64,000 nucleotides of DNA from Candidatus Eiseniibacteriota bacterium (GCA_963707915.1 OY970178.1:1600001-1664000); one strand, 5' to 3'; shown: positions 46,697-64,000, numbered from the stretch's first letter. Notes: generated from the sequence alone by a model not told the origin. Translations and numbers: made by a program.

Positions 46697-47707
46697 CTAC
46701 CTCATGCCGAACGCGTGGGCGACGTACCAGCTGGCGGCCGCGATGACCGCGGCGATGGGCATGGTGAGGACCCAGGCCCAGACGATCCGGCCGGCCACCC
46801 CCCATTTCACGGCGGAGAGCCGCTGGGTCGAGCTCACCCCGACCCCGACGATCGCTCCCGTGATGGTGTGGGTGGTCGAGACCGGGATGCCGGCGGCGCT
46901 GGCCGCGAAGAGCGAGAGGGCGCCCGCGGTCTCGGCGCAGAACCCCCCCACCGGCTGCAGCCGCGTGATGCTCATGCCCATCGTCTTCACGATGCGCCAT
47001 CCGCCCGAGAGCGTCCCCAGCGCGATGGCGCCGTAGCTCGCGACGATGACCCAGAACGGCATGTGGAACGCCCCGGTGAGGTGCCCGGTCGAGTAGAGCA
47101 GCGCCGTGATGATGCCCGCGGTCTTCTGCGCGTCGTTCGAGCCGTGCCCCAGGCTGAAGGCCGCCGCGGAGACGAGCTGCAGGCGCCGGAACAGCCCGTC
47201 CACGCGGTGGGGCGTGGAGCGGTGGAAGAGCCACAGGACCACGAACATGCTGAGGAAGCCGAGCACCAGGCCGAGGACCGGCGAGATCACGATGAAGAGG
47301 GCGATCTTCACCACCCCGCCCACGATGATCGCGCCGGGGCCGTGGGCCACGAGCGCGGCGCCGACGAAGCCGCCGATCAGGGCGTGCGAGGAGGAGGTCG
47401 GCAGCCCCAGCCACCAGGTCACCAGGTTCCACACCACCGCGGCGACCAGCGCGGCCAGCACCAGCGACGGCGTCACCACCGAGGGGTCGACGGTGCCCTT
47501 GGCGATGGTCTTCGCCACGTGGTGCACCGGGAACACGACGAACGCGGCGAAGTTGAAGAACGCCGCCCACACCACCGCCCAGTGCGGCGGCAGCACCCGC
47601 GTGCTGACCACCGTGGCGATGGAGTTGGCGGCGTCGTGGAAGCCGTTGCTGAAGTCGAAGGCCAGCGCGATCAGGATGATCAGGATGACGCCGAGTGGCA
47701 GGTGCAT
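46697..47707 (-). CDS. pit: Inorganic phosphate transporter (PiT family), copy 2
   Basis: NGFHDAANSIAT, GLPTSSSHA, HGSNDAQK, GIPVSTTH. Confidence 0.93.
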   Translation of the reverse strand: MHLPLGVILIILIALAFDFSNGFHDAANSIATVVSTRVLPPHWAVVWAAFFNFAAFVVFPVHHVAKTIAKGTVDPSVVTPSLVLAALVAAVVWNLVTWWLGLPTSSSHALIGGFVGAALVAHGPGAIIVGGVVKIALFIVISPVLGLVLGFLSMFVVLWLFHRSTPHRVDGLFRRLQLVSAAAFSLGHGSNDAQKTAGIITALLYSTGHLTGAFHMPFWVIVASYGAIALGTLSGGWRIVKTMGMSITRLQPVGGFCAETAGALSLFAASAAGIPVSTTHTITGAIVGVGVSSTQRLSAVKWGVAGRIVWAWVLTMPIAAVIAAASWYVAHAFGMR

Positions 47708-47747
47708 CTTCAGCGGCCCCCCGCGCCGAGGGGTTCGATCCCGTCGG

Positions 47748-48755
47748 CTACTTCATGCCCAGCGCGTGCGCGACGAACCAGGACGCGGCCGCGATGATCG
47801 CCGCCGCCGGCATGGTCAGCACCCACGCCCAGACGATGCGACCGGCCACGCCCCACTTCACGGCCGAGAGCCGTCCGGTGGAGCTGACCCCCACGCCGAC
47901 GATCGCGCCGGTGATGGTGTGGGTGGTGGAGACCGGAATGCCCGCCGCGGTCGCGCCGAACAGCGTGAGCGCGCCGGCGGTCTCGGCGCAGAAGCCGCCC
48001 ACCGGCTTCAGCTTGGTGATGTTCATGCCCATGGTCTTGACGATGCGCCAGCCGCCGAACATCGTGCCCAGGGCGATCGCCCCGTGGCTGATGAGCACCA
48101 CCCACAGCGGCACGTGGAACTCGCCGTGGAGGTTCCCGGTCGAGTAGAGCAGGGCGGTGATGATGCCCATGGTCTTCTGGGCGTCGTTGCCGCCGTGGCC
48201 CAGGCTGTAGGCCGCCGCGGAGACGAGCTGCAGGCGCCGGAACAGGCCGTCCACCCGGCTCGGCGTGGTCCGGTGGAACGCCCACATGACGGCGATCATC
48301 GTCACGCACCCCGCCGCCAGCCCGATCAACGGGGCCAGCACGATGAACTGGACGATCTTCGCCAGGCCGCCGAGCATCACGGCCTGCGGCCCGACCGCGA
48401 CCACCGCCGCCCCGGCCAGCCCGCCGATGAGCGCGTGGGACGAGGACGTCGGCAGGCCCACCCACCAGGTGATCAGGTTCCAGATGAGCGCCCCCAGCAC
48501 CGCGGCGAGGATGATCGGCGGGGTCACGACCGCGGGGTCCACCACGCCCTTGCCGATGGTCTTCGCGACGTGGACGCCGAACACCAGGAACGCGGCGAAG
48601 TTGAAGAACGCCGCCCACGCCACCGCCGCGCGCGGCGACAGCACCCGCGTGCTCACCACCGTGGCGATGGAATTGGCGGCGTCGTGGAAGCCGTTGCTGA
48701 AATCGAAGGCCAGCGCGATCAGGATGATCGCGAGAACGTTCAGCGGCAGGTCCAT
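47748..48755 (-). CDS. pit: Inorganic phosphate transporter (PiT family), copy 1
   Basis: NGFHDAANSIAT, GLPTSSSHA, HGGNDAQK, GIPVSTTH. Confidence 0.93.
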   Translation of the reverse strand: MDLPLNVLAIILIALAFDFSNGFHDAANSIATVVSTRVLSPRAAVAWAAFFNFAAFLVFGVHVAKTIGKGVVDPAVVTPPIILAAVLGALIWNLITWWVGLPTSSSHALIGGLAGAAVVAVGPQAVMLGGLAKIVQFIVLAPLIGLAAGCVTMIAVMWAFHRTTPSRVDGLFRRLQLVSAAAYSLGHGGNDAQKTMGIITALLYSTGNLHGEFHVPLWVVLISHGAIALGTMFGGWRIVKTMGMNITKLKPVGGFCAETAGALTLFGATAAGIPVSTTHTITGAIVGVGVSSTGRLSAVKWGVAGRIVWAWVLTMPAAAIIAAASWFVAHALGMK

Positions 48756-48757
48756 GC

Positions 48758-49372
48758 TCAGCGGCTCTTGAGGACGATCGACTCGATCACGTTGGCCACG
48801 TCCTCGCACTGGTCCGTGGCGTTCTCGAGCCGGCCGTAGATCTCCTTCCAGCGGATCACGTCGAGGAAGTCGTGCGACCCGTCGAACAGGTCCGCGACCG
48901 CCTGGCGCGAGAGGGCGTCGGCCTCGTTCTCCAGCCGGTTGATCTCGATGGTGAACGGCATCAGGCCCTTGAAGTCCTTCAGGTGTCCGACCGCCTGCTC
49001 GATCTGCACCCCGCACTCGGTCACGATGCGTGCGAGCTGTTTCGCCTGGGGCGTGGCCGCCGGGATCTTGAACAGGACGATGCGGCTGGAGATCCCCTCG
49101 ATCGCGTCGAGCACGTCGTCGAGCCCGCTGGCGAGGCCGTGGACGTCCTCGCGGTCGAGCGGCGTGATGAAGGTCCGGTTCAGGCGCTCGAACAGCTCGT
49201 GCGCCACCAGGTCACCCTGGTGCTCGACGTCCTTGAGGGCCCTGGCGCGGTCCTCGAGGTGGTCGAACTCCTGCACCATCTGGTTGAGCAGGTCGCCGCC
49301 CTGGCGCACCAGCACCGCCTGGCGCCGGAACAACTCGAAGAAGTTCTCGTCCTTGGGGAAGAGGGAAAACAT
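48758..49372 (-). CDS. DUF47 / PhoU-like phosphate transport regulator
   Basis: EHQGD...LNRTFITPLDREDV...LDDVLD, ENEAD, WKEIYGRLENATD; adjacent to pit. Confidence 0.92.
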   Translation of the reverse strand: MFSLFPKDENFFELFRRQAVLVRQGGDLLNQMVQEFDHLEDRARALKDVEHQGDLVAHELFERLNRTFITPLDREDVHGLASGLDDVLDAIEGISSRIVLFKIPAATPQAKQLARIVTECGVQIEQAVGHLKDFKGLMPFTIEINRLENEADALSRQAVADLFDGSHDFLDVIRWKEIYGRLENATDQCEDVANVIESIVLKSR

Positions 49373-49968: not shown

Positions 49969-50002
49969 GGAGCGTCGGACCCGCGAGGGGCGCGGGCGGG
50001 AG

Positions 50003-51565
50003 CTAGGCCCGCCCCGCGCCCCCGGGCCCCGGCGCGGCGTCCGCGCGACGCCACTCGCCGCTGGGGTCGTCGAGGGTATAGCGGTCGTAGAACTCGCGCC
50101 CGCGCTTCGCGACGAAGTCCACGCCCTCGAGCAGCGCCTGGAACTCCTCCTCCCCCGTCACCGGGGAGAAGCAGATGCGCACCCAGCCGGGCTTCACGCC
50201 GATGTGCCCCTCCTCGAGCTGGTGCTTGATCGCGAGCGAGACCCGCGGATCGATGTGCAGCAGCTCGTGGCCGTACGGCCCGGCGCACATGCACCCGCCC
50301 CGGACCTGGATGCCGAAGAAGTCGTTGAGCAGGGCCGAGGCCAGGTTGTGGTGCAGTCCCTTGAAGATGAGCGAGACCACGCCGAGGCGCTCGGGCTCGA
50401 GGTTGCCCAGCACCTCGAGCCCGGGGTTCCTGGTCCACTCGGCCAGCGCGCGCCGCAGGTAGTCCTGCTCGATCCGCCGCATGCGCTCCGCGCCGATCGC
50501 GTGCTTGAGGTCGAAGGCGAGCCCGGCCTGGATGCTGCCCACGATGGGCGGGGTGCCGCCGGTCTCGCGGCGGAAGAAGTCGTGCAGGTAGATGTGCTCG
50601 GTCGGGGAGGTGTAGAGCACCGTGCCGCCGCCGGGCTCCGAGGGCACGCGGTTGGTGAAGAGCCGGCGGTTCGCGACCAGCAGGCCCGGCGTCCGGGGCC
50701 CGCCCAGGAACTTGTGGACCGAGAAGAACGCTGCGTCCTTCGCCGCCGCCTCGTCGGGCCGGCCGGTCGCGTCCACCGGGTGCAGGTCGATGTCCACGTA
50801 CGGCCCCGAGGCGGCGTAGTCGAAGAAGGCCAGCGCCCCGTGCGCGTGCAGCACCCGCGCGATCGCGGCCGTGTCGTTGAGGATGCCCGTGACGTTCGAG
50901 GCGGCCGAGAAGGTCCCGATCCTGAGCGCGCGGCCGGCGTGGGCCGCGAGCACCCGGTCGAGGTGCTCGAGGCTGACGCGCCCCTGCGCGTCGAAATCCA
51001 CGTAGACGTTCTCGGCGATGGTCTCGCGCCAGGTGATGTCGTTGCTGTGGTGCTCCATGTGGCTCCGGAACACCACCGGGCGCTCGTCCTCGGGGACGTG
51101 ACCGGAGAGCCGGTAACGGTCCTCGAGCTGGCAGGGGATGCGCAGCCCCAGGATGGCGATGAGCCGGTTGACCGCGCCGGTCGAGCCCGCACCCACCGGG
51201 ATGAGCACGTCGTCCGGCCCCGCGTGGAGGTAGCGCGCGATGCGGCGGAACGCGCCCTCGTAGTAGCGCGTCATGAGCCGTCCGGTGTGCGAGGACTCGG
51301 TGTGGGTGTTGGCCATGAAGGGCAGCACGCGCGCGGCCAGCTCGTCCTCGACGGCGCGGTGGAAGCGGCCCGAGGCGATGTAGTCGAAGTAGCGGAGCGG
51401 CTTCTCCCCCTCCGGTGTGGGGAACGTCGCGTCCACGCCGACCACGCCGCGGCGCAGATGCTCGAGGAAGGCGCGTTCCTCGGCCGCGTCGCGCGTCTCG
51501 ATCGCGCGCCGCGGCGTGTCGTCCTCGAGATCCACCAGCGGCGGGAAGGTGTGCTCGGCGGCCAT
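50003..51565 (-). CDS. Class V PLP-dependent enzyme (cysteine desulfurase-like)
   Basis: YFDYIASGR, ANTHTE, EHHSN, SNVTG, FDYAA, SVHKFLGG, RGGCMCAGPYG, KPGWVR. Confidence 0.88.
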   Translation of the reverse strand: MAAEHTFPPLVDLEDDTPRRAIETRDAAEERAFLEHLRRGVVGVDATFPTPEGEKPLRYFDYIASGRFHRAVEDELAARVLPFMANTHTESSHTGRLMTRYYEGAFRRIARYLHAGPDDVLIPVGAGSTGAVNRLIAILGLRIPCQLEDRYRLSGHVPEDERPVVFRSHMEHHSNDITWRETIAENVYVDFDAQGRVSLEHLDRVLAAHAGRALRIGTFSAASNVTGILNDTAAIARVLHAHGALAFFDYAASGPYVDIDLHPVDATGRPDEAAAKDAAFFSVHKFLGGPRTPGLLVANRRLFTNRVPSEPGGGTVLYTSPTEHIYLHDFFRRETGGTPPIVGSIQAGLAFDLKHAIGAERMRRIEQDYLRRALAEWTRNPGLEVLGNLEPERLGVVSLIFKGLHHNLASALLNDFFGIQVRGGCMCAGPYGHELLHIDPRVSLAIKHQLEEGHIGVKPGWVRICFSPVTGEEEFQALLEGVDFVAKRGREFYDRYTLDDPSGEWRRADAAPGPGGAGRA

Positions 51566-51652
51566 GGTCACCTCACGGGTCGGCGTCGGGTCCGCGGTCA
51601 TGCTAGCCTGCCGTCGCCGGAGCGGCAACGCGACGCGAAGGAGGACCCGACG

Positions 51653-52827
51653 ATGACCGCAGCCACGGAAGCCAGGACCATCGCCTTCTGCCAGGAGCTG
51701 GTGAGGATCGAGAGCCTCTCGGGCGGGGAACAGGCCGCGGCCGCGGCGGTCGAGCGCGAGATGCGCTCCCTCGGCTACGACGAGGTGCGCCGCGACGAGC
51801 TCGGCGGCGTGGTCGGCAAGCTGCGCGGGGCACGCGCCGCCGGCCCCGGCGCGGCGCCCGGCGCCCTGCTGTTCGACGCCCACCTGGACGTGGTCCCGGC
51901 CACCGAGCCGGGCAGCTGGCGCTTCCCGCCGTTCTCGGGCGAGCTGGCGGAGGGCCGCGTCTGGGGCCGGGGCGCGACCGACGTCAAGGGCTCGCTCGCG
52001 GCGCTGGTCCTGGGGCTGGGCACCCTGCCCCGCGCGGACTTCGCGGGCACCCTGCTGGTCTCGGCGAGCGTCGGCGAGGAGCGCATCGAGGGCCTGGCCC
52101 TGGGCCACGTGCTCGCCGCGCATCCCGCGCGCGCGGCGGTGATCTGCGAGCCGACCGGGCTGCGGCTGGGGCTCGGCCACCGCGGGCGCGCGAGCCTGGT
52201 GGTCGAGGCCACGGGCCGGGCCGCGCACACCTCGCGCGCCGAGAACGGCATCAACGCGGTCTACCGGCTGACCGAGGCCATCACCCGGGTCCGCGCCATG
52301 GCGCCCCGCGCCGACGAGCTGCTCGGGCGCGGCCACGCCGAGCTGGTCGAGGTCTCCTCGCTCCCCTACCCGGGCTCCGCGATGGTGCCCTACCACGCGA
52401 CTGCGCGCTTCGACCGGCGGCTGGTGCGCGGCGAGACCCGCGAGAGCGTGCTGGGCGAGATGGAGGCCGCGCTCGCCGGGCTCGAGGGCGTGAGCGTGCG
52501 CCTGCACCAGGGCACGCTCGGTGCTTCACCGGGCGCTCGTTCACGGTGGAGGCGTTCCATCCCGGCTGGGCGGTGGCGGCCGATGCGCCCCACGTGCGGC
52601 GGGCGCGCGAGGCGCTCGCCGGGGCCGGGCTGGCAGACGAGGTCTTCTACGCTCCGTACTCCACGAACGGGACCGCGACCGCGGGCCGCGCGGGTCTCCC
52701 CACGCTCATCTACGGCGCGGGCGACATCTCCGCCGCGCACGCGGTGGACGAGAGCATCGCCACCGACGAGCTGCTCGCCGCGTCCCGCGGCTACCAGGCG
52801 CTCGCGCGGGGCCTGGCCGCGGGCTGA
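51653..52827 (+). CDS. M20/ArgE family amidohydrolase (YgeY-like), frameshift near 52520
   Basis: ELVRIESLSG, DAHLDVV, GRGATDVKG, GEE, CEPT, GRAAH; C-terminus YSTNG...GAGD..AAHAVDE in the second frame. Confidence 0.85.
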
Positions 52828-52984
52828 GCGGTCCGACGGCGGGACGCCTCCGGCGCGTGCCCGGCTCGAGTTCGACCCCGGGGGGCCCGTCGCCCGGGGC
52901 GGGCAGGGACGCGACCCGGCATGCGTGAGCGGGGCGTCCGCTCGGACGCCCCGCTCGTGCTCGTTGCTCCGCGATCTACTGCGG

Positions 52985-53941
52985 TTACTCGGCGCGCCCC
53001 AGCACCAGCGCGATCAGCGCCATGCGCAGCACGACGCCGTTGGCGGCCTCGATCCAGTAGCGGGCGTGACGCGTGCTGTCCACGTCGGCGGGCAGCTCGT
53101 CCATGCGCGGCAGCGAGTGCAGGACGATCGAGCCCGGCTTGGCCTTCTCGCGCATCATCGTGCGGGTGACCTGGTACTCGGGCGGCGTGAGGCCCTTCTT
53201 CGCGTCGGCCGCGTCGACGCGCGACTTGGTGTAGTCGGCCTGCACCACCGGCTCGATGTAGATCACGTCGGCCTTGTCGATGCACTCCGACGTGCTCTTC
53301 CACTCGTGGTAGCGCACGTTGCGGTCGGCCAGCTCCTGCTTGAACTCGGCCGTCGGCGCCATGTCCGGCGGGTAGACCACGTCGAGCTCCATGTCGAACG
53401 CCGTGGCGGCGTAGCCGATCGAGTGCATGGTGCGCATGCGGTGGTCGCCGACGCACAGCCAGCGCAGGCCGTCGAGCGTGCCCTTCTCGCGCCAGATCGT
53501 GTACAGGTCGGTGAGCACCTGCGTCGGGTGCTCGCCCCAGCCGTCGCCGCAGTTGATGATGGGCACCGAGGAGTGCTTCGCCGCCTCGGCCGGCGCGCCG
53601 AGCTGGAAGTGCCGCATCGCGATCACGTCGCCGTAGTACTCCAGCATGCGCACGGTGTCCTTGATCGACTCCTGGTAGAAGTCGCCGGCGCGCGTCATCT
53701 TGGCGTCGGAGAAGCCCAGGACGTGGCCGCCGAGGCGGTGCATCGCGGCCTCGGTGGACAGGCGGGTGCGGGTGCTGGGCTGGTAGAACGCGGTCAGCAG
53801 CGTCTTGTCGGCGCACAGGTCGGTGTTGCGGCGGTTGTGGGCGTGCGGCGCGAGCTTCTCGCACACCTCGAAGATGCGGGTGTAGTCGTCGCGCTCGAAA
53901 TCCTTGAGCGACAGGATGTCACGTCCGATGAAGCTCCTCAT
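52985..53941 (-). CDS. ATCase-like carbamoyltransferase (pseudo-ATCase) of uncertain specificity
   Basis: FYQPSTRTRLS, HPTQ and HSLPR are present, but the ATCase RxQxER motif is replaced by EPVVQADY. GGAGAGG RBS. Confidence 0.85.
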   Translation of the reverse strand: MRSFIGRDILSLKDFERDDYTRIFEVCEKLAPHAHNRRNTDLCADKTLLTAFYQPSTRTRLSTEAAMHRLGGHVLGFSDAKMTRAGDFYQESIKDTVRMLEYYGDVIAMRHFQLGAPAEAAKHSSVPIINCGDGWGEHPTQVLTDLYTIWREKGTLDGLRWLCVGDHRMRTMHSIGYAATAFDMELDVVYPPDMAPTAEFKQELADRNVRYHEWKSTSECIDKADVIYIEPVVQADYTKSRVDAADAKKGLTPPEYQVTRTMMREKAKPGSIVLHSLPRMDELPADVDSTRHARYWIEAANGVVLRMALIALVLGRAE

Positions 53942-54012
53942 GGCACCTCTCCCAGGATGGTGGGTCTGATGACGGCCGGATCCAACGCCGGCCGTGGTTC
54001 CTGCTTCCTTCG

Positions 54013-55256
54013 CTACCCCTCGGGGAACAACGTGTCGAGCACGCCGGCGTCCGGCGGGATGAGCCGCGGCTCGCCGGCCGTCTTCATGGCCGAGGCCACG
54101 TCCTTGAGCCCGTTGCCGGTGATGAGCGCCACGACGCGCCAGGCCGGGTCCACCAGGCCCTGGCGCACGGCCTCCTTCAGCCCGGCCCAGCGCGGCGGCC
54201 GCCGCGGGCTCGGCGAACACGCCGGCGCCGCGCGCCACCTCGCCGATCGCGGCCAGGATCGCGGCGTCGCTCACCGTGACGCCGAAGCCGCCCGACTCGC
54301 GGATCGCCTTCACGGCCGCGTCGCCGTCGCGCGGCAGGCTCACCGAGATCGAGTCCGCCACGGTGTCGCCGGACACCGGCCGGATCACGCCGTCGCCGGC
54401 CGCGGCCTTGACGATCGCCGCGCTGCCCTCGGCCTGCACCGCCAGCAGCCGGGGCGTGCGCTCGATGAAGCCCAGGCGCTGGAACTCGACGAAGCCCTTC
54501 CAGACGCCCGAGAGGATGTTGCCGTCGCCGACCGGCACGACGACCAGGTCCGGCACCTGCCAGTCCAGCTGCTCGCAGAGCTCGAAGGAGACGGTCTTCT
54601 TGCCCTCGCGCGTGTACGGGTTGAATCCGGTGTTGCGGTTGTACCAGCCGAAACGGCGCGTGGCCTCGAGACAGAGATCGAAGGCCTGGTCGTAGGTGCC
54701 GTCCACCGCCAGCACCTCGGCACCGAAGGTCAGCAGCTGCGCGATCTTCGCGCGCGGCGCGGTCTTCGGCACGAAGATGCGCGTGCGGATGCCCGGCGCG
54801 GCGGCGAGCACCGCGGTCGCCGAGGCGGCGTTGCCGGTCGAGGCCCCGGTCACCAGCGTGCACCCGAGCTCCTGCGCGCGCTTGAGCGCGACCGAGCTGG
54901 CGCGACACTTGAACGAGGCGCTGGGATTGCGGCCGTCGTCCTTGAGCAGCAGCGGCCGGGCGAGCCCGAGCTCCCGCGCGAGCCGCGGCGCCTCGACCAG
55001 CGGCGTCCAGCCCACCGGCGGCCCGTCGAGCCGGGCGCTCACCGGCAGGAGCGGCAGGTAGCGCCAGATCGTGCGGTCGCCGCTCTTCGCGAGCGATTCG
55101 CGCGACCAGCTCTTCCTCACGACGTCGAGGTCGTACTCGACCAGCGTGTTCGCGCCGCAGTCCGGGCAGACGTAGCGGTCGTCGGCGACCGGCGCGAGCC
55201 GGCCGCAGGCGACGCAGCGCAGGCCGACCGCGTTGCCCCGGCCGCGGCCCGCTCAC
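54013..55256 (-). CDS. Threonine synthase-like fold-type-II PLP enzyme, frameshifts near 55240 and 54190
   Basis: N-terminal CxxC...CPxC; IWRYLPLLP, GWTPL, NPSASFKCR, ASTGNAA, EGKKT, PVGDG, EPA, TGNGLKD. Confidence 0.85.
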
Positions 55257-56204
55257 GCCACGATCCAGGTGCCCGACTTGCCTTCCAGCGCGGGCACGAG
55301 GTGCTGCGGGTCGGTGATCAGCGCCTGCTTGCCGCCCGACTCGAGGAACTCGATGATCGCCTCGATCTTGGGCTTCATGCTGCCCGGCGCGAAGTGGCCC
55401 TCGGCCAGGTACTTCTTCGCCTCGGCCAGGGTCATGCGGTCGATGTCCTTCTGGTCGGGCTTGCGGAAGTTGAGGCAGACCTTCTCGATCGCGGTCGAGA
55501 TGATGAGCAGGTCGGCCTTCAGGTCGCGCGCCAGCAGGCTGGTCGCGAGGTCCTTGTCGATCACGGCCGCCGCGCCCTTCAGGTGCCCCTTCTCGTCCTC
55601 GACCACCGGGATGCCGCCGCCGCCCACCGCGACCACCACGATGTCGTTCTCGAGCAGCCGGCGGATGGCCTCGAGCTCGATGATCGGCATCGGCTTCGGC
55701 GAGGCCACGACGCGGCGGAACCCGCGCCCGGCGTCCTCGACGATGTCCCACTTGTCCTTCTGCCGGTGCTCGTTCGCGGTCTTCTCGTCCATGAAGGAGC
55801 CGATCGGCTTCGACGGCTTCTTGAAGGACGGATCGTTGCGGTCCACCAGCACCTGCGTCACCACGGTGGCGACCACCGGGGGCCTGCGGCCAGTCCTTCA
55901 TCTCGTTGTACATCGCGCGCTGCACCTGGTAGCCGATCGCCCCCTGGGTGTCGGCACCGCACGAGTCGAGCGGCACCTGGTGCAGCTCGTGGGCCGCCAG
56001 CTCGCTGCGCCGCAGGATGAAGCCGACCTGCGGGCCGTTGCCGTGGGTCACGACGACGCGGTAGCCCGACTTGACCAGCCCCGCGATGTGCCGGCAGGTC
56101 TCCTCGACCGCGGCGTACTGGTCCTCCACCGACTTGTGCGACTCGTCCAGGATCAGCGAATTCCCGCCCACCGCGAGGATGGCGAGCTTCTTCTCGGTCG
56201 TCAT
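55253..56204 (-). CDS. arcC: Carbamate kinase, frameshift near 55880
   Basis: AVGGNSL, THGNGPQVG, TQGAIGY, KPIG, RRVVASP, GGGGIPV, AVIDKD, GSMKPK. Confidence 0.93.
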
Positions 56205-56301
56205 GTTCCCCACTCCATCCGCGCCCGAGCGGGCGCGATCGTTCGTTGGTCAGGGACCGGGAGCCGCCCGCAGGCGGCTCCCGTCCACGGTCCGCCGGGC
56301 C

Positions 56302-57785
56302 CTAGAGGGTCTTGAGCACGCCCGTGCGCTCGTTGAACTGCTGGATGAGCCGGTCCCACTCCGCGACCTGGGCCCAGGTCTCGGTCCAGAAGTCGGGCTC
56401 CCACAGGGCGGCCAGCTCCTCGGAGGTCTTGCCCTGCTGCTCCACCCAGGTGAAGTACTTGAGGTTGTGGAGCCGCTTGCGGTCGTGGTAGCCGAGCTCC
56501 TGCAGGTAGTCGGTCCCGGCGCCCTCGAGGTAGCGGGCGAAGTCCTGGGCCGCGCGCTCGCGGGTGTACGGGCCCCGCTCGTCGCGCAGCTCCTGCGTGC
56601 GCGAGCGCGTACAGCGTCCATCGAGTCGGTGAGCGGGGTCGACCATGACGTCGCGCCCGTCCAGCTCGTAGTATCTTCGCCACCTTGATCGCCGCGATCA
56701 GGTTGCAGATGCCGGAGATCCCGACCAGCGGCAGGAGCTTGAGGAAGTCCTCCTTCAGGCCGCTGCGCGGCGAGGAACTTGATCGCCCTCCTCCTCGTTG
56801 AACAGCCGCAGGAGGCTCATGGCACTGCTCGTCGTCGATGGCCGCGACCATGTCGGTGTTGCGCACGTTGTGCACCCAGGGCACGTGCTTGTCGCCGATC
56901 CCCTCGATGCGGTGCGCGCCGAAGCCGTTCGAGAGCAGCGTCGGGCACTGCAGCGCCTCGGTCGCCACGACCTTCACGTGCGGGAACCGGGTGCGCAGGT
57001 AGTCGCCGGCCGCGATGGTGCCGGCCGAGCCCGTGGCCGAGATGTAGGCGGCCAGCCGGCTGTCCGGCTTGCGGATCTGGCCGAAGACCTCCTCGACGAT
57101 CGAGCCGGTCATGGTGTAGTGCCAGGCCGCGTTCCCGAACTCCTCGAACTGGTTGAAGATGGAGATCTTGTCGCCGCGCGTCTTCCGCAGCTCCCAGCAC
57201 TTGTCGTAGATCTCCTTGACGTTCGACTCGGTGCCCGGCGTCGCGATGATCTCGTCCGTGCCGATGGCGCGCAGCCACTCGAAGCGCTCCTTCGACATGC
57301 CCTCGGGCAGGATGGCGATGGCCTTGCAGCCGAGCAGCGCGCTGTCGAAGGCGCCGCCGCGGCAGTAGTTCCCGGTCGAGGGCCAGACCGCCTTGTGCAG
57401 CTCGGGGTCGAACTCGCCCGTGACCAGGCGCGGCACCAGGCAGCCGAAGGCGGCGCCGACCTTGTGGGCGCCGATCGGGAAGTGCTTGCCGACCAGCCCG
57501 ACGATGCGGGCCTTCACGCCGGTCAACTCGGACGGGAACTCGATCCAGTTGCCGCGGTTGAACAGGCCGCCCTTCTCCTTCGGCTCGTTCTTCCAGGTGA
57601 TGCGGAAGAGGTTGAGCGGGTCGACATCCTGCATGCCCGACCCCGGCCAGCCGCTTCTTGATCGGCTCCGGGACCCGGCTCGGGTCCTTCTGCTCGGCGA
57701 AGGTGGGGATGACGATCTTGCGCTCGCGGCAGCGCGCCACGGTCTTGGCGATGACGGCTTCGTCGATCTTCGGAGAGACCCGCAT
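56302..57785 (-). CDS. Fold-type-II PLP enzyme (cysteine synthase/DPAL-like superfamily), several frameshifts
   Basis: NLFRITWKNE, FPIGAHKVGA, WPSTGNYCRGG, GSAGT, HRIEGIGDKH, GISG, HNLKYFTWVEQQG. Confidence 0.8.
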
Positions 57786-58119
57786 CCAATGGCTCCTTTT
57801 CGGCGGAGTTTTCGGGTTTCGGAGGGACCAAGGACAATAGCCGAGGCCGCTGCCGCAGGGCAAACGCGGGGACCGCACAAGTCCTTGACGTCGCATGGCC
57901 GAGGGGCGCGGGCCCGTCCCCCCGCGCGGAGGTCGGGGACGCCGGTTTGAACGCGGACCCGCGCAACGGGTACGATGCGCGGCCGACTTCCTGACGGTGG
58001 CCGTCAGCGGCTTGTTTCTCCCTCGAGCGCGGCGGCCACGACGATGCCATCCGCCATTCCGAGGCGCCGGCCGGGACCTTCGAGGGGTCCGCCGGCTCCC
58101 GCACCCAGAAGGAGCCTGC

Positions 58120-59265
58120 ATGAGCCCCGTGACCTCCCTCCCGCCGGTCCCCGACCGCGCCGCGCTCGACGCCCTCTTCGGCCGCAGCATGCTGCTGACG
58201 CGCGACTGGACCACGCCCGAGCTCGAGACCCTGATGGCGGTGATCGGTCGTTTCGCCGGGCTCGACTACGCCGGCAAGTCCACCGCGCTGTTCAAGGACG
58301 AGCTGGGCTGGGCCCTGTTCTTCGACCAGTCCACCCGCACCAAGTCGGCCTGGGCCGGCGCCTGCGCACGCCTCGGCCTGGACCCGGTCATCGTCGACGG
58401 CAGCAGCACGCAGGTCTCGCACGGCGAGACCGCGGTCGAGACCGGCGCGATGCTGGGGATGAACGCCCACGCCCTGGGCGTGCGGCACGATCTCATCATC
58501 GGCGAGGGCAACCGCTTCATGCGCGACGTCAAGCAGGGCATCGACGACTACCTCGCCGCGATCCGGGACCCGCGCCGGGTGCCGGTCGTGAACCTGCAGT
58601 GCGACATCGACCACCCCACGCAGACGATGGCCGACCTGATGTGGATGCGCGAGTGCAACCCCGGCGGCCTCAAGGGCAAGAAGATCGCCATCTCCTGGGC
58701 CTACTCGCCCTCGTACGCGAAGCCGCTCTCGGTGGCGCAGGGCTGCTCCATGCTCTTCACCCGCTTCGGCGCGGAGGTCGTCCTCGCCCATCCCCAGGGC
58801 TACCACCTGATGCCCGACACCATGGAATTCGCCGCGGCCAGCGCGAAGGCCTCGGGCGGCTCGTTCAAGGTGGTGAACTCGATGGACGAGGCCTTCCAGG
58901 GCGCCGACATCGTCTATCCCAAGTCGTGGGGCCCCTACGACCTCATGCTGGAGCGCGTCGCGGCCAACAAGGCGAAGGACAAGGCGCGGCTGGGCGAGAT
59001 CGAGAAGGCGGCGCTGGCGGGCAACGCGAAGCACAAGGACTGGATCTGCGACGAGCGGCGCATGGGACTCACCCGCGGCGGGAACGCGCTCTACATGCAC
59101 CCGCTGCCCGCGGACATCGGCGACGAGGTCTCGCACGGCGTGATGAAGCAGCACACCGTCAACGTCGCGCGCCAGGCCCAGTACAAGATGTACGCGATCA
59201 TGGCGCTGCTCTCGGTGGCGAAGGTCCCGAACCTCGCGCAGCGGCTGGAAGCCCTCGGGAAGTAG
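58120..59265 (+). CDS. ygeW: Knotted carbamoyltransferase, YgeW-like
   Basis: DQSTRT, QVSHGET, VNLQCDIDHPTQ, WAYSPSYAKPLSVAQG, VYPKSW, YMHPLPAD. Confidence 0.85.
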   Translation: MSPVTSLPPVPDRAALDALFGRSMLLTRDWTTPELETLMAVIGRFAGLDYAGKSTALFKDELGWALFFDQSTRTKSAWAGACARLGLDPVIVDGSSTQVSHGETAVETGAMLGMNAHALGVRHDLIIGEGNRFMRDVKQGIDDYLAAIRDPRRVPVVNLQCDIDHPTQTMADLMWMRECNPGGLKGKKIAISWAYSPSYAKPLSVAQGCSMLFTRFGAEVVLAHPQGYHLMPDTMEFAAASAKASGGSFKVVNSMDEAFQGADIVYPKSWGPYDLMLERVAANKAKDKARLGEIEKAALAGNAKHKDWICDERRMGLTRGGNALYMHPLPADIGDEVSHGVMKQHTVNVARQAQYKMYAIMALLSVAKVPNLAQRLEALGK

Positions 59266-59269
59266 TCCC

Positions 59270-60838
59270 GTGAGCGAAGGCGACACGCGCGGCACGCTCG
59301 ACGCGAGCATCGCGTCGGCGGCCGCGCGTGACCTGCCGCTCGCCGCCGCCATCCTGCGGGAGGCCATCCGCATCCCCGCCGACCACGTGGACCGCCCACC
59401 CGGGGCACCCACCGAAGGTGGGTCCGGCGGCGACCCGCTGTGCGGCACCAGCAACCACGAGGGCCCGCGCCTCGACTACCTGCGGCGCGCCGTCCTCGAG
59501 TCCGGCGCGGTCGCGAGCGCGGACGACGTCGGATTCGACGCCTTCGGCAACCTCAACTGGGTGGTGGAGGACCGCGACGACGGCGTGCCCCACCGCGAGA
59601 AGCGCGTCATCTACCTCGACGGCCACGCCGACACGGTCCGGCCGATGCGCGCCCAGTGGCACGAGCGGACCGGCGGGCTCGACCCGTTCCTCGGGCTCAC
59701 GGACCCCGCGCGGCTCGACCGCGGCCGGCTGCGCCGGGAGCTCGGCTGGCTGCCGCCGGACGACGAGTGGGGGCACCTGGTCTTCGGCCGCGGCGCCGCG
59801 GACCAGCTCGGCGGCGTGGTGGCGCAGATCGTCGCCTCGCGCATCCTGCTCGAATTGAAGCCCGCCGGCGCGCTGCGGGGCGTGATCGTGCGCAGCTACG
59901 TCACGCCGGCGGAGGAGGACAACGAGGGTGGCGGGCCGCTCTTCCTGACGCGGCGCGTGTTCCCCGGCGCCCCGCCCGCCATGCTCCCGGACGTCGTCGT
60001 GCTCACCGAGATGACCGGCGACACGACCCGCGGCGCGCTCGTCGTCCGGCGCGGCCAGCGCGGCCGCATGGCGATCGAGGTCCGGGTCACCGGGCGTTCG
60101 TGCCACGGCTCGATCCCGCGCGAGGGCCTGAACCCGCTCGAGCACGGCGGCGCGATCCTCGCCGAGGCCGCCGCGCGGCACGCGAGCGGCGAGGGCTTCC
60201 TGCGCGATCCGCTGCTCGGAGCCGGCTCGCGCACCGCCACGTGGGCGGAGCTCGAGACGCCGAGCGACTGCTCCGTGCCCGAGCGCTTCCGCTTCCGGCT
60301 CGACCGACGCCTCACCACCGGCGAGTCCCCCGAGCAGGCGCTGCGGGACGTCGAGGGCCTCGAGAGCGTGGCGCGCGCGCGCGCCGCGGGACTCGCCGTC
60401 GAGGTCGCGGTGCCGGTCTACGACCAGCCCACCTGGCGCGGCTACGTGCCCGGGAACGCGCAGGTCTACGCCGCCTGGCAGACCCCCGAGGAGCACCCCG
60501 CCATCCAGGCGGCGCTGGCGACCTACCGTGCCGTGGTGACGCCGCATGTGGCCGCGGACGGCGAGGGCGGCGCGCTGCGCCGCGAGCCCCGGGTCGACCG
60601 CTGGGTGTTCTCGACCGACGGCGTGGGCTGGCCCGTGCCCGAGAGCGAGCGGGCCCTGGTCGTGCCGGACTCGAAGCGGTGGGTCTCCGCGGGCGGGCAG
60701 CGCCACCCGGGCATGTTCGGCATCGGTCCCGGGATCATGCAGAATGCGCACCAGGTCGGCGAGGTGCTGGACCTGCGCGAGTTGCAGCAGGCGATCGCGT
60801 TCCTGGCGCGCTACCCGAGCGTGTTCGCGACGCGGTAG
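59270..60838 (+). CDS. M20 family amidohydrolase (YgeY-like, with insertions)
   Basis: DAFGN, LDGHADTV, GRGAADQLGG, AEEDNEG, RGQRGR, GRSCHGS, WVFSTDG, AHQVGE. Confidence 0.85.
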   Translation: MSEGDTRGTLDASIASAAARDLPLAAAILREAIRIPADHVDRPPGAPTEGGSGGDPLCGTSNHEGPRLDYLRRAVLESGAVASADDVGFDAFGNLNWVVEDRDDGVPHREKRVIYLDGHADTVRPMRAQWHERTGGLDPFLGLTDPARLDRGRLRRELGWLPPDDEWGHLVFGRGAADQLGGVVAQIVASRILLELKPAGALRGVIVRSYVTPAEEDNEGGGPLFLTRRVFPGAPPAMLPDVVVLTEMTGDTTRGALVVRRGQRGRMAIEVRVTGRSCHGSIPREGLNPLEHGGAILAEAAARHASGEGFLRDPLLGAGSRTATWAELETPSDCSVPERFRFRLDRRLTTGESPEQALRDVEGLESVARARAAGLAVEVAVPVYDQPTWRGYVPGNAQVYAAWQTPEEHPAIQAALATYRAVVTPHVAADGEGGALRREPRVDRWVFSTDGVGWPVPESERALVVPDSKRWVSAGGQRHPGMFGIGPGIMQNAHQVGEVLDLRELQQAIAFLARYPSVFATR

Positions 60839-60989
60839 TCTGGCAGGGCGGGACCGGCGGGGCCGCGGCTCAAGCGCGCGCCGCGGCCGCCGACACTGGA
60901 AGGTGGACGAGTACGGCCGGGCCGGTGGCGAACCGGGCGGCCGTCCCGTCCGGCGGCCGCTGCGCCGCCATCGTCACGGGGGGCACGAC

Positions 60990-62548
<1,559 letters not shown>

Positions 62549-62550
62549 GG

Positions 62551-64000
62551 TCAGGCCGCCTCGTCGAAGAGCACGAAGGAGTCGAGCGCCGGGGTGACGA
62601 GCTGCTTGCGGATCTCGAGGTCGAAGTGCGTCTCCTCGCGCGCCAGGTCGTCGGCCGCACTGCCGCCGACCGCGCGGACGAGCGCGCGCCCGGTGGTGGC
62701 GTGGAACAGCACCTCGACCGGCGAGCTGCCGCCCAGCCGGCTGCTCACCAGCGGGATGTTCTCCTTCTCGAGGAAGTCCCGGATGAACTGGGCGTTCTTG
62801 CGGGGCACTTCCGGGCTCAGCCCGACGCGCGCCAGCACGTGGGCGGCCCCGAAGGCCTTCGCCTCGAGGCGCCGGCGGTCCCCGCCCAGCTTGGCGATGT
62901 CGTTGATCAGCATCTCCATGGCGTTCACTCCGTAGCGGGTGGGCAGCTCGGCGTCGGCCAGTCCGTCGGGCAGCATGAAGTGGTTGATGCCCCCGATGCG
63001 CGCCACCGGATCGAAGAGGCAGGCGCAGACGCAGGAGCCCAGCACGGTGCGCAGCTCGACCGGCTCGGCGCTCGCCCGCACCCCGCCGATCGTGACGTGG
63101 ATGCGCGCGGACCGCGGCCCGGCCGCCACAGCGGCCGCGGCCCGCGCCGGTCCGACCCGCCGGCCGCTCGCCTCGGCCAGGGCGCGGCGCGTCCCGGGCG
63201 GCAGGTGGATGCGGCCCGCCCGCCCGGCGGGAGCGGGCACGGCGTCCGTCCCGGCCGCGCCGGCGCACTCCGCAGCGGTCGCGGGCGCGGGCCCGGCGGC
63301 CACGGCCGGGCCGCCCGCCGCGACCCGTCCGGTGCGCTCGGCCGCGCCGCGCAACCGGTAGATGGTGCCCCGCAGCGGCTCGAACACGTGCATGTGGGAC
63401 TGCAGGCTCTCCGAGTGCCCGAGGAACAGGTACCCGCCCTCCGCCAGCCGCTCGGCGAACGACTCGACGATCGTCTTCACCGTCTCCCGGTCGAAGTAGA
63501 TCAGGACGTTGCGGCAGAAGATGAGGTCGAACGGGCCGGGCACCCGCCACGGCTTCTCGATCAGGTTGAAGCGGCGGAAGGTGACCAGGTCGCGCAGCTC
63601 GCTCTTGACCCGCGCCATGCCGCCGTTCGCGCCCGAGCCGCGCTGGAAGAACCGCTTGCGCAACTCGGCCGGCACCGGCTGGAGGAGATCGATCGGGGTA
63701 GACCCCCTGCTGGGCACGCGCCAGCACCTGCGTGTCGAGATCGGTCGCGAGGATCTCGAAGCTCCACCCGGCCGGGTTCTCGAACCCCGAGAGCAGGGTC
63801 ATCGCCAGCGTGTAGGGCTCCTCGCCCGACGAGCAACCGGCGCTCCAGATGCGCAGTCGCCTCGGCCCGCCCCTCAGGCTGCGCTCGCGGAGCTCGGGGA
63901 AGACCCGGGTCCTCATGAAGTCGAAGTGGTGGGACTCGCGGAAGAAGTCGGTCTTGTTCGTGGTGATGCAGTTGAGCATCTCCCGCAGCTCGCTGCCGTC
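62551..64000 (-). CDS. cheR: CheR methyltransferase fused to CheD deamidase (5' end outside the window), frameshift near 63695
   Basis: TTNKTDFFRE, WSAGCSSGEEPY, IFCRNVLIYFD, LGHSESL; Ala-rich linker; then TVLGSCV..CLFD...NHFMLP...YG..AME, all in one frame. Confidence 0.88.

Follow-up and report, generated by a model that had tools for sequence, protein, structure and literature searches.

What might a cluster do that encodes two different carbamoyltransferases, a carbamate kinase, two pyridoxal phosphate (PLP)-dependent enzymes, and two M20 hydrolases? The question is raised by positions 51653 to 60838 of a 64,000-nucleotide stretch (hereafter the window; G000:C1:1600001-1664000, from OY970178.1) of the 3.62-Mb single-contig genome (94.8% complete) of an uncultured, sediment-type Candidatus Eiseniibacteriota bacterium (GCA_963707915.1), whose nearest named loci come from Candidatus Eisenbacteria metagenome-assembled genomes, at 96 to 99% protein identity. 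By open reading frame calling, frame plots, and family scans across the window, we recovered all seven coding units in the orientations described in an earlier note on this DNA: ygeW-like and M20-B genes on the plus strand diverge from a minus-strand set encoding a CysK-like enzyme, ArcC, a ThrC-like enzyme, and a pseudo-aspartate carbamoyltransferase (pseudo-ATCase), on which a second plus-strand M20 gene, M20-A, converges. The same note placed these genes in the lower part of the anaerobic urate cluster, and our comparisons bear this out: the block is very probably the lower, ATP-yielding half of the reductive urate (2,8-dioxopurine) pathway. Within that frame, we favor, with moderate confidence, a reading drawn from sequence comparisons in which the locus is a mosaic lower urate pathway where YgeW and the pseudo-ATCase would each yield carbamoyl phosphate and the M20 enzymes would be redundant.

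The assignment is carried by the distribution of the genes. Among the 206 genomes of the phylum, a pseudo-ATCase is encoded by 21, a YgeW-type transferase by 72, and an SsnA-type enzyme by 72; SsnA accompanies YgeW in 68 of the 72 ygeW genomes, and both enzymes are found in every one of the 21 pseudo-ATCase genomes, so the combination is not a matter of chance. The upper pathway genes lie mostly elsewhere in the genome. YgeY-type M20 hydrolases, scored by searching all 206 genomes with two proteins and a chosen 52 of them with the PRK13004 model, tend to be absent where the pseudo-ATCase is present: of 32 ygeW-positive genomes outside the order to which this bacterium belongs, such an M20 is found in 1 of 10 with a pseudo-ATCase versus 21 of 22 without it. 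The cleanest contrast lies within one genus (g69), in which homologous flanks beside ygfK enclose ygeW-M20-B in one genome (G048) and pseudoATC-ygeW-arcC in another (G049).

A survey of the GTDB database extended this picture, with at least 575 matches to the pseudo-ATCase that span Actinomycetota, Planctomycetota, Spirochaetota, Chloroflexota, Thermotogota, and others. We analyzed the best 80 of them (70 to 99% identity) with flanks of at most 10 kb, so that absence from a locus does not mean absence from the genome. At these best 80 of at least 575 loci, we found a second transferase 58 times, ThrC-like and CysK-like enzymes 60 and 59 times, xdh 54, arcC 51, ssnA 43, an F420-type reductase 38, a hyuA-like gene 16, a UacY-like gene 6, and DpaL once. 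The sole DpaL locus among them, L047, reads reductase-DpaL-pseudoATC-ygeW-type-arcC-xdh; its gene for a true 2,3-diaminopropanoate (DAP) ammonia-lyase (387.8 bits, above 276) immediately precedes pseudoATC-ygeW-type-arcC, and no M20 gene is visible at the locus. The presence of DpaL at such a locus points to diaminopropanoate as the product. At six actinobacterial loci (L060, L068, L077, L079, L081, and L103), a UacY/D-aminoacylase-like gene lies immediately upstream of pseudoATC-ygeW-arcC on the opposite strand. The wide co-occurrence of the genes that the earlier note had asked about is thus evident; the full set is not one conserved module. A single seven-gene module was rejected, as a YgeY-type M20 stands at only 7 of the best 80 of at least 575 pseudo-ATCase loci (four of the seven being close relatives) and M20-A is missing from a close congener, G139.

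The YgeW-like (YTCase-type) carbamoyltransferase (58120 to 59265, plus strand; 381 amino acids [aa], intact) is 48% identical to Escherichia coli YgeW, finds its best structure match in 3Q98 (E = 5 × 10−101), and is sister to the E. coli YgeW clade (SH-aLRT 100). It keeps the YTCase residues S71 to T74, Q98, R122, D124, Q160, H165, Q168, S200, K203, K270, L331, D334, and E344; K363 of the YTCase residue table falls on W363 in the translation, with the next Lys kept, and C330 (HCLP) is not kept, the motif being HPLP (Cys in 9 and Pro in 6 of 15 clade members). A proline-rich loop (WAYSPSYAKP) and a long 240s insertion align, at the level of sequence only, with E. coli YgeW. The protein scores under the curated cut-offs (TIGR03316, 360.7 versus 500; PRK07200, 380.5 versus 453). 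Most YgeW substrate-site residues are also kept by the short second transferases of other loci.

The pseudo-ATCase (52985 to 53941, minus strand; 318 aa, intact) is 37% identical to E. coli PyrB and has the ATCase fold (template modeling score, ~0.82 to 0.84) in a predicted structure that, with a predicted local distance difference test (pLDDT) score of 74 and active-site loops below 50, confirms the fold only. Across 207 sequences of the family, the residues that bind carbamoyl phosphate (S52, T53, R54, T55, R105, H134, Q137, and L267 in PyrB numbering) and R167 are invariant (207 of 207). The aspartate pocket is altered: R229 is replaced by P (P231), Q231 by V (V233), K84 by Y (Y89), S80 by R, and T228 by E, and EPVVQ stands in place of the RxQxxER aspartate motif of PyrB. 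The invariant E230 of the pseudo-ATCase aligns with D231 of ornithine carbamoyltransferase (OTCase), which binds a free amine, and with K270 of YgeW. Both of these are second-substrate residues in Table 1 of PMC4581275. This hybrid pocket would suit an alpha-carbamoylated amino acid that carries a free amine at another position, namely a mono-ureido-diaminopropanoate; it proves neither regiochemistry nor stereochemistry. The TIGR00670 score of the window protein within a longer read is 224.7 against a cut-off of 236.95, and its relatives pass with 245.2 and 238.5, which explains their misannotation as ATCase. Separate pyrB-pyrI and argF-like genes occur in this genome, and together with the lost aspartate residues, they led us to reject a housekeeping ATCase or OTCase role for the transferases of the cluster. 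The family is tight: two full-length representatives of 50% clusters score above 600 bits, and full-length sisters come next at ~350 bits. Many more ATCase-branch paralogs without RxQ and with a TRAGD-like 80s loop form separate 50% clusters (P0128 to P0270).

Neither PLP enzyme of the cluster is a YgeX (DpaL) homolog. The best score for YgeX/DpaL in this genome is 28.3 bits against the TIGR01747 cut-off of 274, and none of the 206 phylum genomes has a match at E ≤ 1 × 10−40. The CysK-fold enzyme (56302 to 57785, minus strand; ~490 aa, frame-broken, with an AHKV lysine motif) belongs to an uncharacterized family, and the ThrC-like fold-type II enzyme (54013 to ~55256, minus strand; frame-broken) has the motif SFKCR; both keep the PLP lysine, and their closest solved folds are CysK/O-acetylserine sulfhydrylase (OASS) and threonine synthase, respectively. 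The predicted structure of the CysK-like enzyme of a relative (G137; pLDDT, 93.5) matched only CysK/OASS-type folds, and a structure atlas search returned generic PALP names. As the CysK-like enzyme occurs in 74 of the 206 genomes and in 70 of the 72 ygeW-positive ones, it is a candidate replacement for YgeX. The carbamate kinase gene arcC (55253 to 56204, minus strand; frame-broken, identified by family scan) is the only one found in the genome. Elsewhere (L006; G000:C1 ~2,181,000 to 2,192,000), an operon combines Thiolase-like/DUF35 and xanthine-dehydrogenase-like genes, allF-allG, a cyclase, and allH (oxamate carbamoyltransferase type); were it to release carbamoyl phosphate, it would depend on the arcC of the window.

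These observations can be assembled into a scheme in which XdhD-YgfM, a PreT-PreA fusion (for YgfK), SsnA, and a dihydropyrimidinase, all encoded elsewhere, would lead to 2,3-diureidopropanoate, and YgeW would phosphorolyze one of its ureido groups to release carbamoyl phosphate. The other group, most probably the alpha-ureido one of 3-amino-2-ureidopropanoate, would then be phosphorolyzed by the pseudo-ATCase, giving 2,3-diaminopropanoate and a second carbamoyl phosphate; ArcC would convert both carbamoyl phosphates to ATP (two ATP, not one), and diaminopropanoate would be converted to pyruvate and ammonia by the CysK-like enzyme, either alone or together with the ThrC-like one. YgeY-like M20 enzymes could perform the pseudo-ATCase step by hydrolysis and would be redundant here. 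According to Liu et al. (bioRxiv 10.1101/2025.04.24.650524) and Li et al. (PMC12507026), YgeW and YqeA make ATP from diureidopropanoate, YgeY hydrolyzes the second ureido group, and YgeX forms pyruvate; the two papers disagree on which ureido group leaves first. The proposal that two carbamoyl-phosphate-releasing steps feed one carbamate kinase, made from the sequence of the window, is the best reading of the locus. We extend it only tentatively to the stronger statements that the pseudo-ATCase might have a new catabolic role, carbamoyl transfer from (D)-3-amino-2-ureidopropanoate, in which it displaces YgeY and doubles the substrate-level ATP gained per urate, that the CysK-fold protein might be a nonhomologous diaminopropanoate ammonia-lyase throughout the phylum, and that this genus might keep the ATP-conserving and the irreversible hydrolytic options as a working branch point.

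The upper genes that this scheme calls for are for the most part present. As the earlier note stated, gene scans call no xdh, ssnA, hyuA, or ygfK in the window; the search of the rest of the genome that it suggested recovered XdhD-YgfM, an SsnA-like gene, and a HyuA-like dihydropyrimidinase, and neither YgfK nor YgeX was found anywhere in the genome. The genes ygfM-xdhD-amidohydrolase-mocA-yqeB-yqeC lie at ~146 to 153 kb, with XdhD (50% identical to that of E. coli) in pieces, and the SsnA-like gene lies at 1764 kb (256.5 against a cut-off of 455.5). About 8 kb from ssnA is a PreT-PreA fusion of 831 aa (L002:3527-6019; G000 1,753.5 to 1,756.0 kb), which is found inside the cluster in G097, G057, and G064 and is a candidate substitute for YgfK/UacX. 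The genome also has selD with an in-frame TGA and a tRNA-Sec. The dihydropyrimidinase, 47.5% identical to HyuA, sits inside a complete reductive pyrimidine operon (L001:5824-13909; G000 ~736 to 744 kb) with MMSDH, a nitrilase-family amidase, a class III aminotransferase, preT, and preA. In G097, this operon abuts arcC-ygeW-M20-B, and its hydantoinase may therefore serve both routes.

Several points weigh against the scheme. Inside the order, a YgeY-type M20 is found in all 11 pseudo-ATCase carriers as well as in all 29 noncarriers, this genome has three, and G002 also combines a pseudo-ATCase with a YgeY-type M20; the replacement of YgeY is thus incomplete here. The exclusion outside the order (Fisher P = 3 × 10−6) ignores kinship and is overstated because kin are not independent, and with several incomplete genomes besides, it rests on about three sister contrasts (families f4, f6, and f13). 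The UacY-like hydrolase at 6 of the best 80 loci fits no simple one-for-one scheme. The upper genes are scattered, with SsnA below its cut-off, XdhD in pieces, and YgfK not found in the genome, and the sole HyuA-like gene belongs to the pyrimidine operon. ATCase binds an L-amino acid. Liu et al. assign (R) intermediates, and Li et al. have YgeW giving albizziin and YgeY acting on it, an order that would make the 3-ureido group the target of the pseudo-ATCase.

This opposite order would have YgeW remove the 2-ureido group, leaving the 3-ureido group of albizziin to the pseudo-ATCase, with E230 holding the alpha-amine and two ATP still gained. E230 at the position of OTCase D231 is compatible with an alpha-amine, and Li et al. 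(PMC12507026) detected albizziin with HyuA plus YgeW and pyruvate from albizziin with YgeY plus YgeX. We nevertheless consider it unlikely: the pseudo-ATCase belongs to the ATCase branch and keeps R167, whereas the side-chain DAP carbamoyltransferase (DPTCase) is placed by PMC4581275 in the OTCase branch, with HDLP rather than HSLP, and YgeW is related to AOTCase and SOTCase, both of which take N-acyl substrates and work on their side chain.

The M20 enzymes bear on a further alternative. M20-A (51653 to 52827, plus strand) belongs to a divergent clade of YgeY-family metallo-amidohydrolases, with PRK13004 as its best NCBIfam model (219.7 bits for its N part and 292.5 for the intact copy of G137, against a cut-off of 321). 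M20-B (59270 to 60838, plus strand), a 522-aa YgeY-like hydrolase with insertions, is 29% identical to E. coli YgeY and scores 168 bits against the same cut-off. Both keep the metal ligands (HxD, D, EE, E, and H) and the RGxRGR, DRRL, and STxG-like motifs of E. coli YgeY. M20-A is accessory, as 5 of 7 congeners have it but G139 and most of family f1 do not; M20-B lies directly downstream of ygeW in most genomes of the family and is the native partner of this ygeW clade. The third, stand-alone YgeY-family gene (G000 759.6 kb; L230:9605-10822; 394.8 bits) is the only copy in the genome above the PRK13004 cut-off, and its clade is common to G002, G137, G140, and G141. The intact metal ligands of both window enzymes, the retention of an M20 in 11 of 11 carriers in the order, and the tracking of the pseudo-ATCase by M20-A in genus g1 and at 8 of 25 metagenome M20-A loci would accord with a stereo-split or parallel first step (e.g., on R- and S-diureidopropanoate), a second step performed by M20-A and M20-B, and two PLP enzymes for the two diaminopropanoate enantiomers, so that every gene is needed. 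Such a division of labor is improbable, given that SsnA and the CysK-like enzyme occur without any YgeY-type M20 in 9 of 10 carriers outside the order, that M20-A is missing in G139, and that the acidic E230 suits a free-amine substrate rather than a di-ureide.

A different ureide as the substrate, the other option raised earlier, is possible but less likely. In its explicit form, the pseudo-ATCase would act on allantoate, ureidoglycine, or a pyrimidine-derived N-carbamoyl acid and share only ArcC with the urate route. The one characterized pseudo-ATCase, Rxyl_2847, is an allantoate-cleaving UGTCase (PMC4016543), this genome also encodes AllFGH and a pyd operon, and the H(T/S)LP motif of UGTCase recurs here as an invariant HSLP. 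By Table 1 of PMC4581275, however, UGTCase has a lysine (K106) at the position of Lys84 and employs S258 and K261, none of which is matched by the Y89 and E230-P-V-V-Q of the present family. The recurrent neighbors are ssnA, xdh, the F420-type reductase, and YgeW-type genes, and the anticorrelation with YgeY would be left unexplained, all of which makes this explanation very improbable.

How the lower urate pathway favored here came by both a pseudo-ATCase and M20 enzymes may be explained by its history. In the other genomes of family f1 that we mapped, ygeW-M20-B follows a native arcC, often beside xdh, ssnA, and ygfK (directly beside them in G090, G098, and G081); the CysK-like/ThrC-like pair there is a different one, and the pseudo-ATCase is absent. 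In trees made from a hand-picked subset of loci, the CysK-like one being a quick tree, the arcC and CysK-like copies of the window congeners fall together with those of G002, Phycisphaerae, and a myxococcal locus and well apart from the native copies; both types of CysK-like gene occur in G147. In G147, a CysK-like-arcC-pseudoATC block of ~4 kb splits ygeW from M20-B. A remnant of the native arcC, its last ~32 codons, lies at 58018 to 58114 (plus strand) and has the ribosome-binding site of ygeW, AAGGAG, at its end: this 97-nucleotide ungapped match to the 3′ end of the native arcC of G096/G097 scores 69 against a shuffle maximum of 31 to 36, three other native arcC genes score 37 to 62, the inserted arcC of the window itself gives no match (score 23), and a remnant above shuffles is seen at 4 of 8 other loci tested. 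The separation in the trees, the split in G147, and the arcC stub together indicate an inserted block and the loss of the native kinase. What had been treated as one set of two transferases and two M20 enzymes is, on these comparisons, almost certainly a mosaic of a native arcC-ygeW-M20-B operon and an inverted CysK-like/arcC/ThrC-like/pseudo-ATCase block, in which the native arcC has been lost except for the stub and M20-A picked up. Through the stub, the split in G147, and the G048/G049 swap, the locus offers a clear record of cassette replacement.

Four of the seven genes are frame-broken in the window: M20-A near 52520, the ThrC-like gene near 54191 and 55250, arcC near 55884, and the CysK-like gene at about 8 single-base breaks. 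We read these breaks as assembly errors. Compared with G139, G135, and G141, the last three genes are broken for the most part by one extra base at a time, at much the same positions in each comparison, and these relatives lack the extra bases; the break of M20-A was not registered in the comparison against relatives, and the gene reads as a single frame in G135 and G137. A check of four genes (CysK-like, arcC, pseudo-ATCase, and ygeW) showed no new stop codons and substitutions mostly in third positions. Control genes are similarly broken (23 of 101 and 7 of 33, some with 5 to 6 clustered indels); rpoB, being intact, lent no support as an error control, and the broader gene set was used. The alternative is that the inserted block is eroding in this strain, with only ygeW and M20-B working. 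On its side are the four broken genes and an indel density of 0.7 to 1.4 per kb in the cluster versus ~0.3 per kb in the controls. The best-matching sequencing run contains 0.22 of the words; contigs from 4 of 24 runs derive from relatives, and some lack the extra base near 55883. The load in the CysK-like gene, where about 8 indels fall within ~1.05 kb while the background is near 0.3 per kb, and the intact rpoB leave room for real decay in this strain. Considering the single extra bases, the lack of new stops, and that ArcC is the sole carbamate kinase of the genome, we regard decay as very remote.

On the near side of M20-A, beyond the span of the earlier note, lies a class V PLP (SufS/cysteine desulfurase-like; Aminotran_5) gene (50003 to 51565, minus strand). 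It occurs in 30 of the 206 phylum genomes and, in 19 of the 24 that also have ygeW, lies within 15 kb of it on the same contig; it may supply S or Se to the Mo cofactor. Two near-identical tandem PHO4-family phosphate transporter genes follow a DUF47 gene at 46697 to 49372, 2 kb from the cluster, and could conceivably supply phosphate for phosphorolysis. On the other side, M20-B is adjoined by cheR, cheD, and cheB chemotaxis genes (60974 to 64000), which are frame-broken too. Scans of the window for sigma-70-like promoter sites returned none, terminators numbered 4 versus 2.5 expected, and a sigma-54 pattern gave 17 matches versus 19.5 expected, none of them in the divergent gap. Conservation ahead of ygeW had suggested an RNA leader, which was rejected: there is no Rfam match at E ≤ 0.5 in 50000 to 62000, the fold z-score is 0.31, and the sequence is the arcC remnant.

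Our literature search, with most subscription papers out of reach, found none assigning the pseudo-ATCase to the urate pathway. The pathway itself is known, and the pseudo-ATCase/ygeW pairing was noted in 2013 (PMC4016543), which tempers the claim: what appears to be new is the form that the pathway takes here, with candidate enzymes of its own, and not a categorically new pathway. If the scheme is true, environmental bacteria across many phyla would follow the 2025 urate pathway with a gain of two ATP from carbamoyl phosphate per purine, and functions would be given to two large families now misannotated as "aspartate carbamoyltransferase" and "PLP-dependent protein beta subunit." In Pfam-level surveys such as that of Li et al. 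(PMC12507026), these genes would be recorded as YgeW and YgeX, and the exchange would go unnoticed. Which ureido groups YgeW and YgeY cleave is a dispute stated as open in PMC12990295, for which the pseudo-ATCase would be an independent test; an ATP-conserving YgeY substitute would also be relevant to the engineering of urate-degrading strains.

Among known systems, the locus most resembles the reductive urate pathway of E. coli (ygeW-ygeX-ygeY-hyuA-yqeA), with which it shares a YgeW-type transferase, YgeY-family hydrolases, and a carbamate kinase, and the genome shares XdhD-YgfM, YqeB/YqeC/MocA, SelD, and SsnA-like genes. It differs in having an extra ATCase-branch transferase, two other PLP enzymes in place of YgeX/DpaL, and the PreT-PreA fusion with no YgfK found in the genome, as well as in its lower similarity (YgeW at 48% and M20-B at 29%, below curated cut-offs), the dispersal of its genes, and its mosaic origin. 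The window PLP enzymes share with YgeX/DpaL fold type II and the pathway position but are near CysK/OASS and threonine synthase rather than the DpaL model. From PyrB, with which it has in common the fold, the carbamoyl phosphate-binding residues, and Arg167, the pseudo-ATCase is set apart by the lack of Arg229, Gln231, Lys84, and RxQxxER and of a pyrI/pyrC context, the true pyrB-pyrI being elsewhere. Barba et al. (PMC4016543) described a pseudo-ATCase beside ygeW, xdh, and hyuA in one Nocardioides (JS614 type, subgroup 2 of the text), for which they proposed no substrate. The present protein resembles that type as an ATCase paralog adjacent to a ygeW homolog, xdh, and hyuA with STRT/HPTQ/HSLP, and a Nocardioides locus of our survey (L053, 75% identical) shows the JS614-type gene order; against their one organism stand at least 575 candidate GTDB matches across many phyla. 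The HSLP/VxP motifs correspond to the row labeled subgroup 3 in Table 1 of that paper and the gene context to subgroup 2 of its text, so the labels of the table appear to be permuted. The H[ST]LP of that table is given to UGTCase in PMC4581275, and the row for the one-organism subgroup 2 shows alternatives. The UGTCase of Rubrobacter xylanophilus (Rxyl_2847) is likewise an ATCase-branch catabolic transferase beside a carbamate kinase in purine breakdown; it differs in serving an oxidative (uricase/allantoinase) route, in keeping the Lys84 equivalent, and in its other 240s-loop residues, and it provides a precedent for phosphorolysis replacing a ureido hydrolase.

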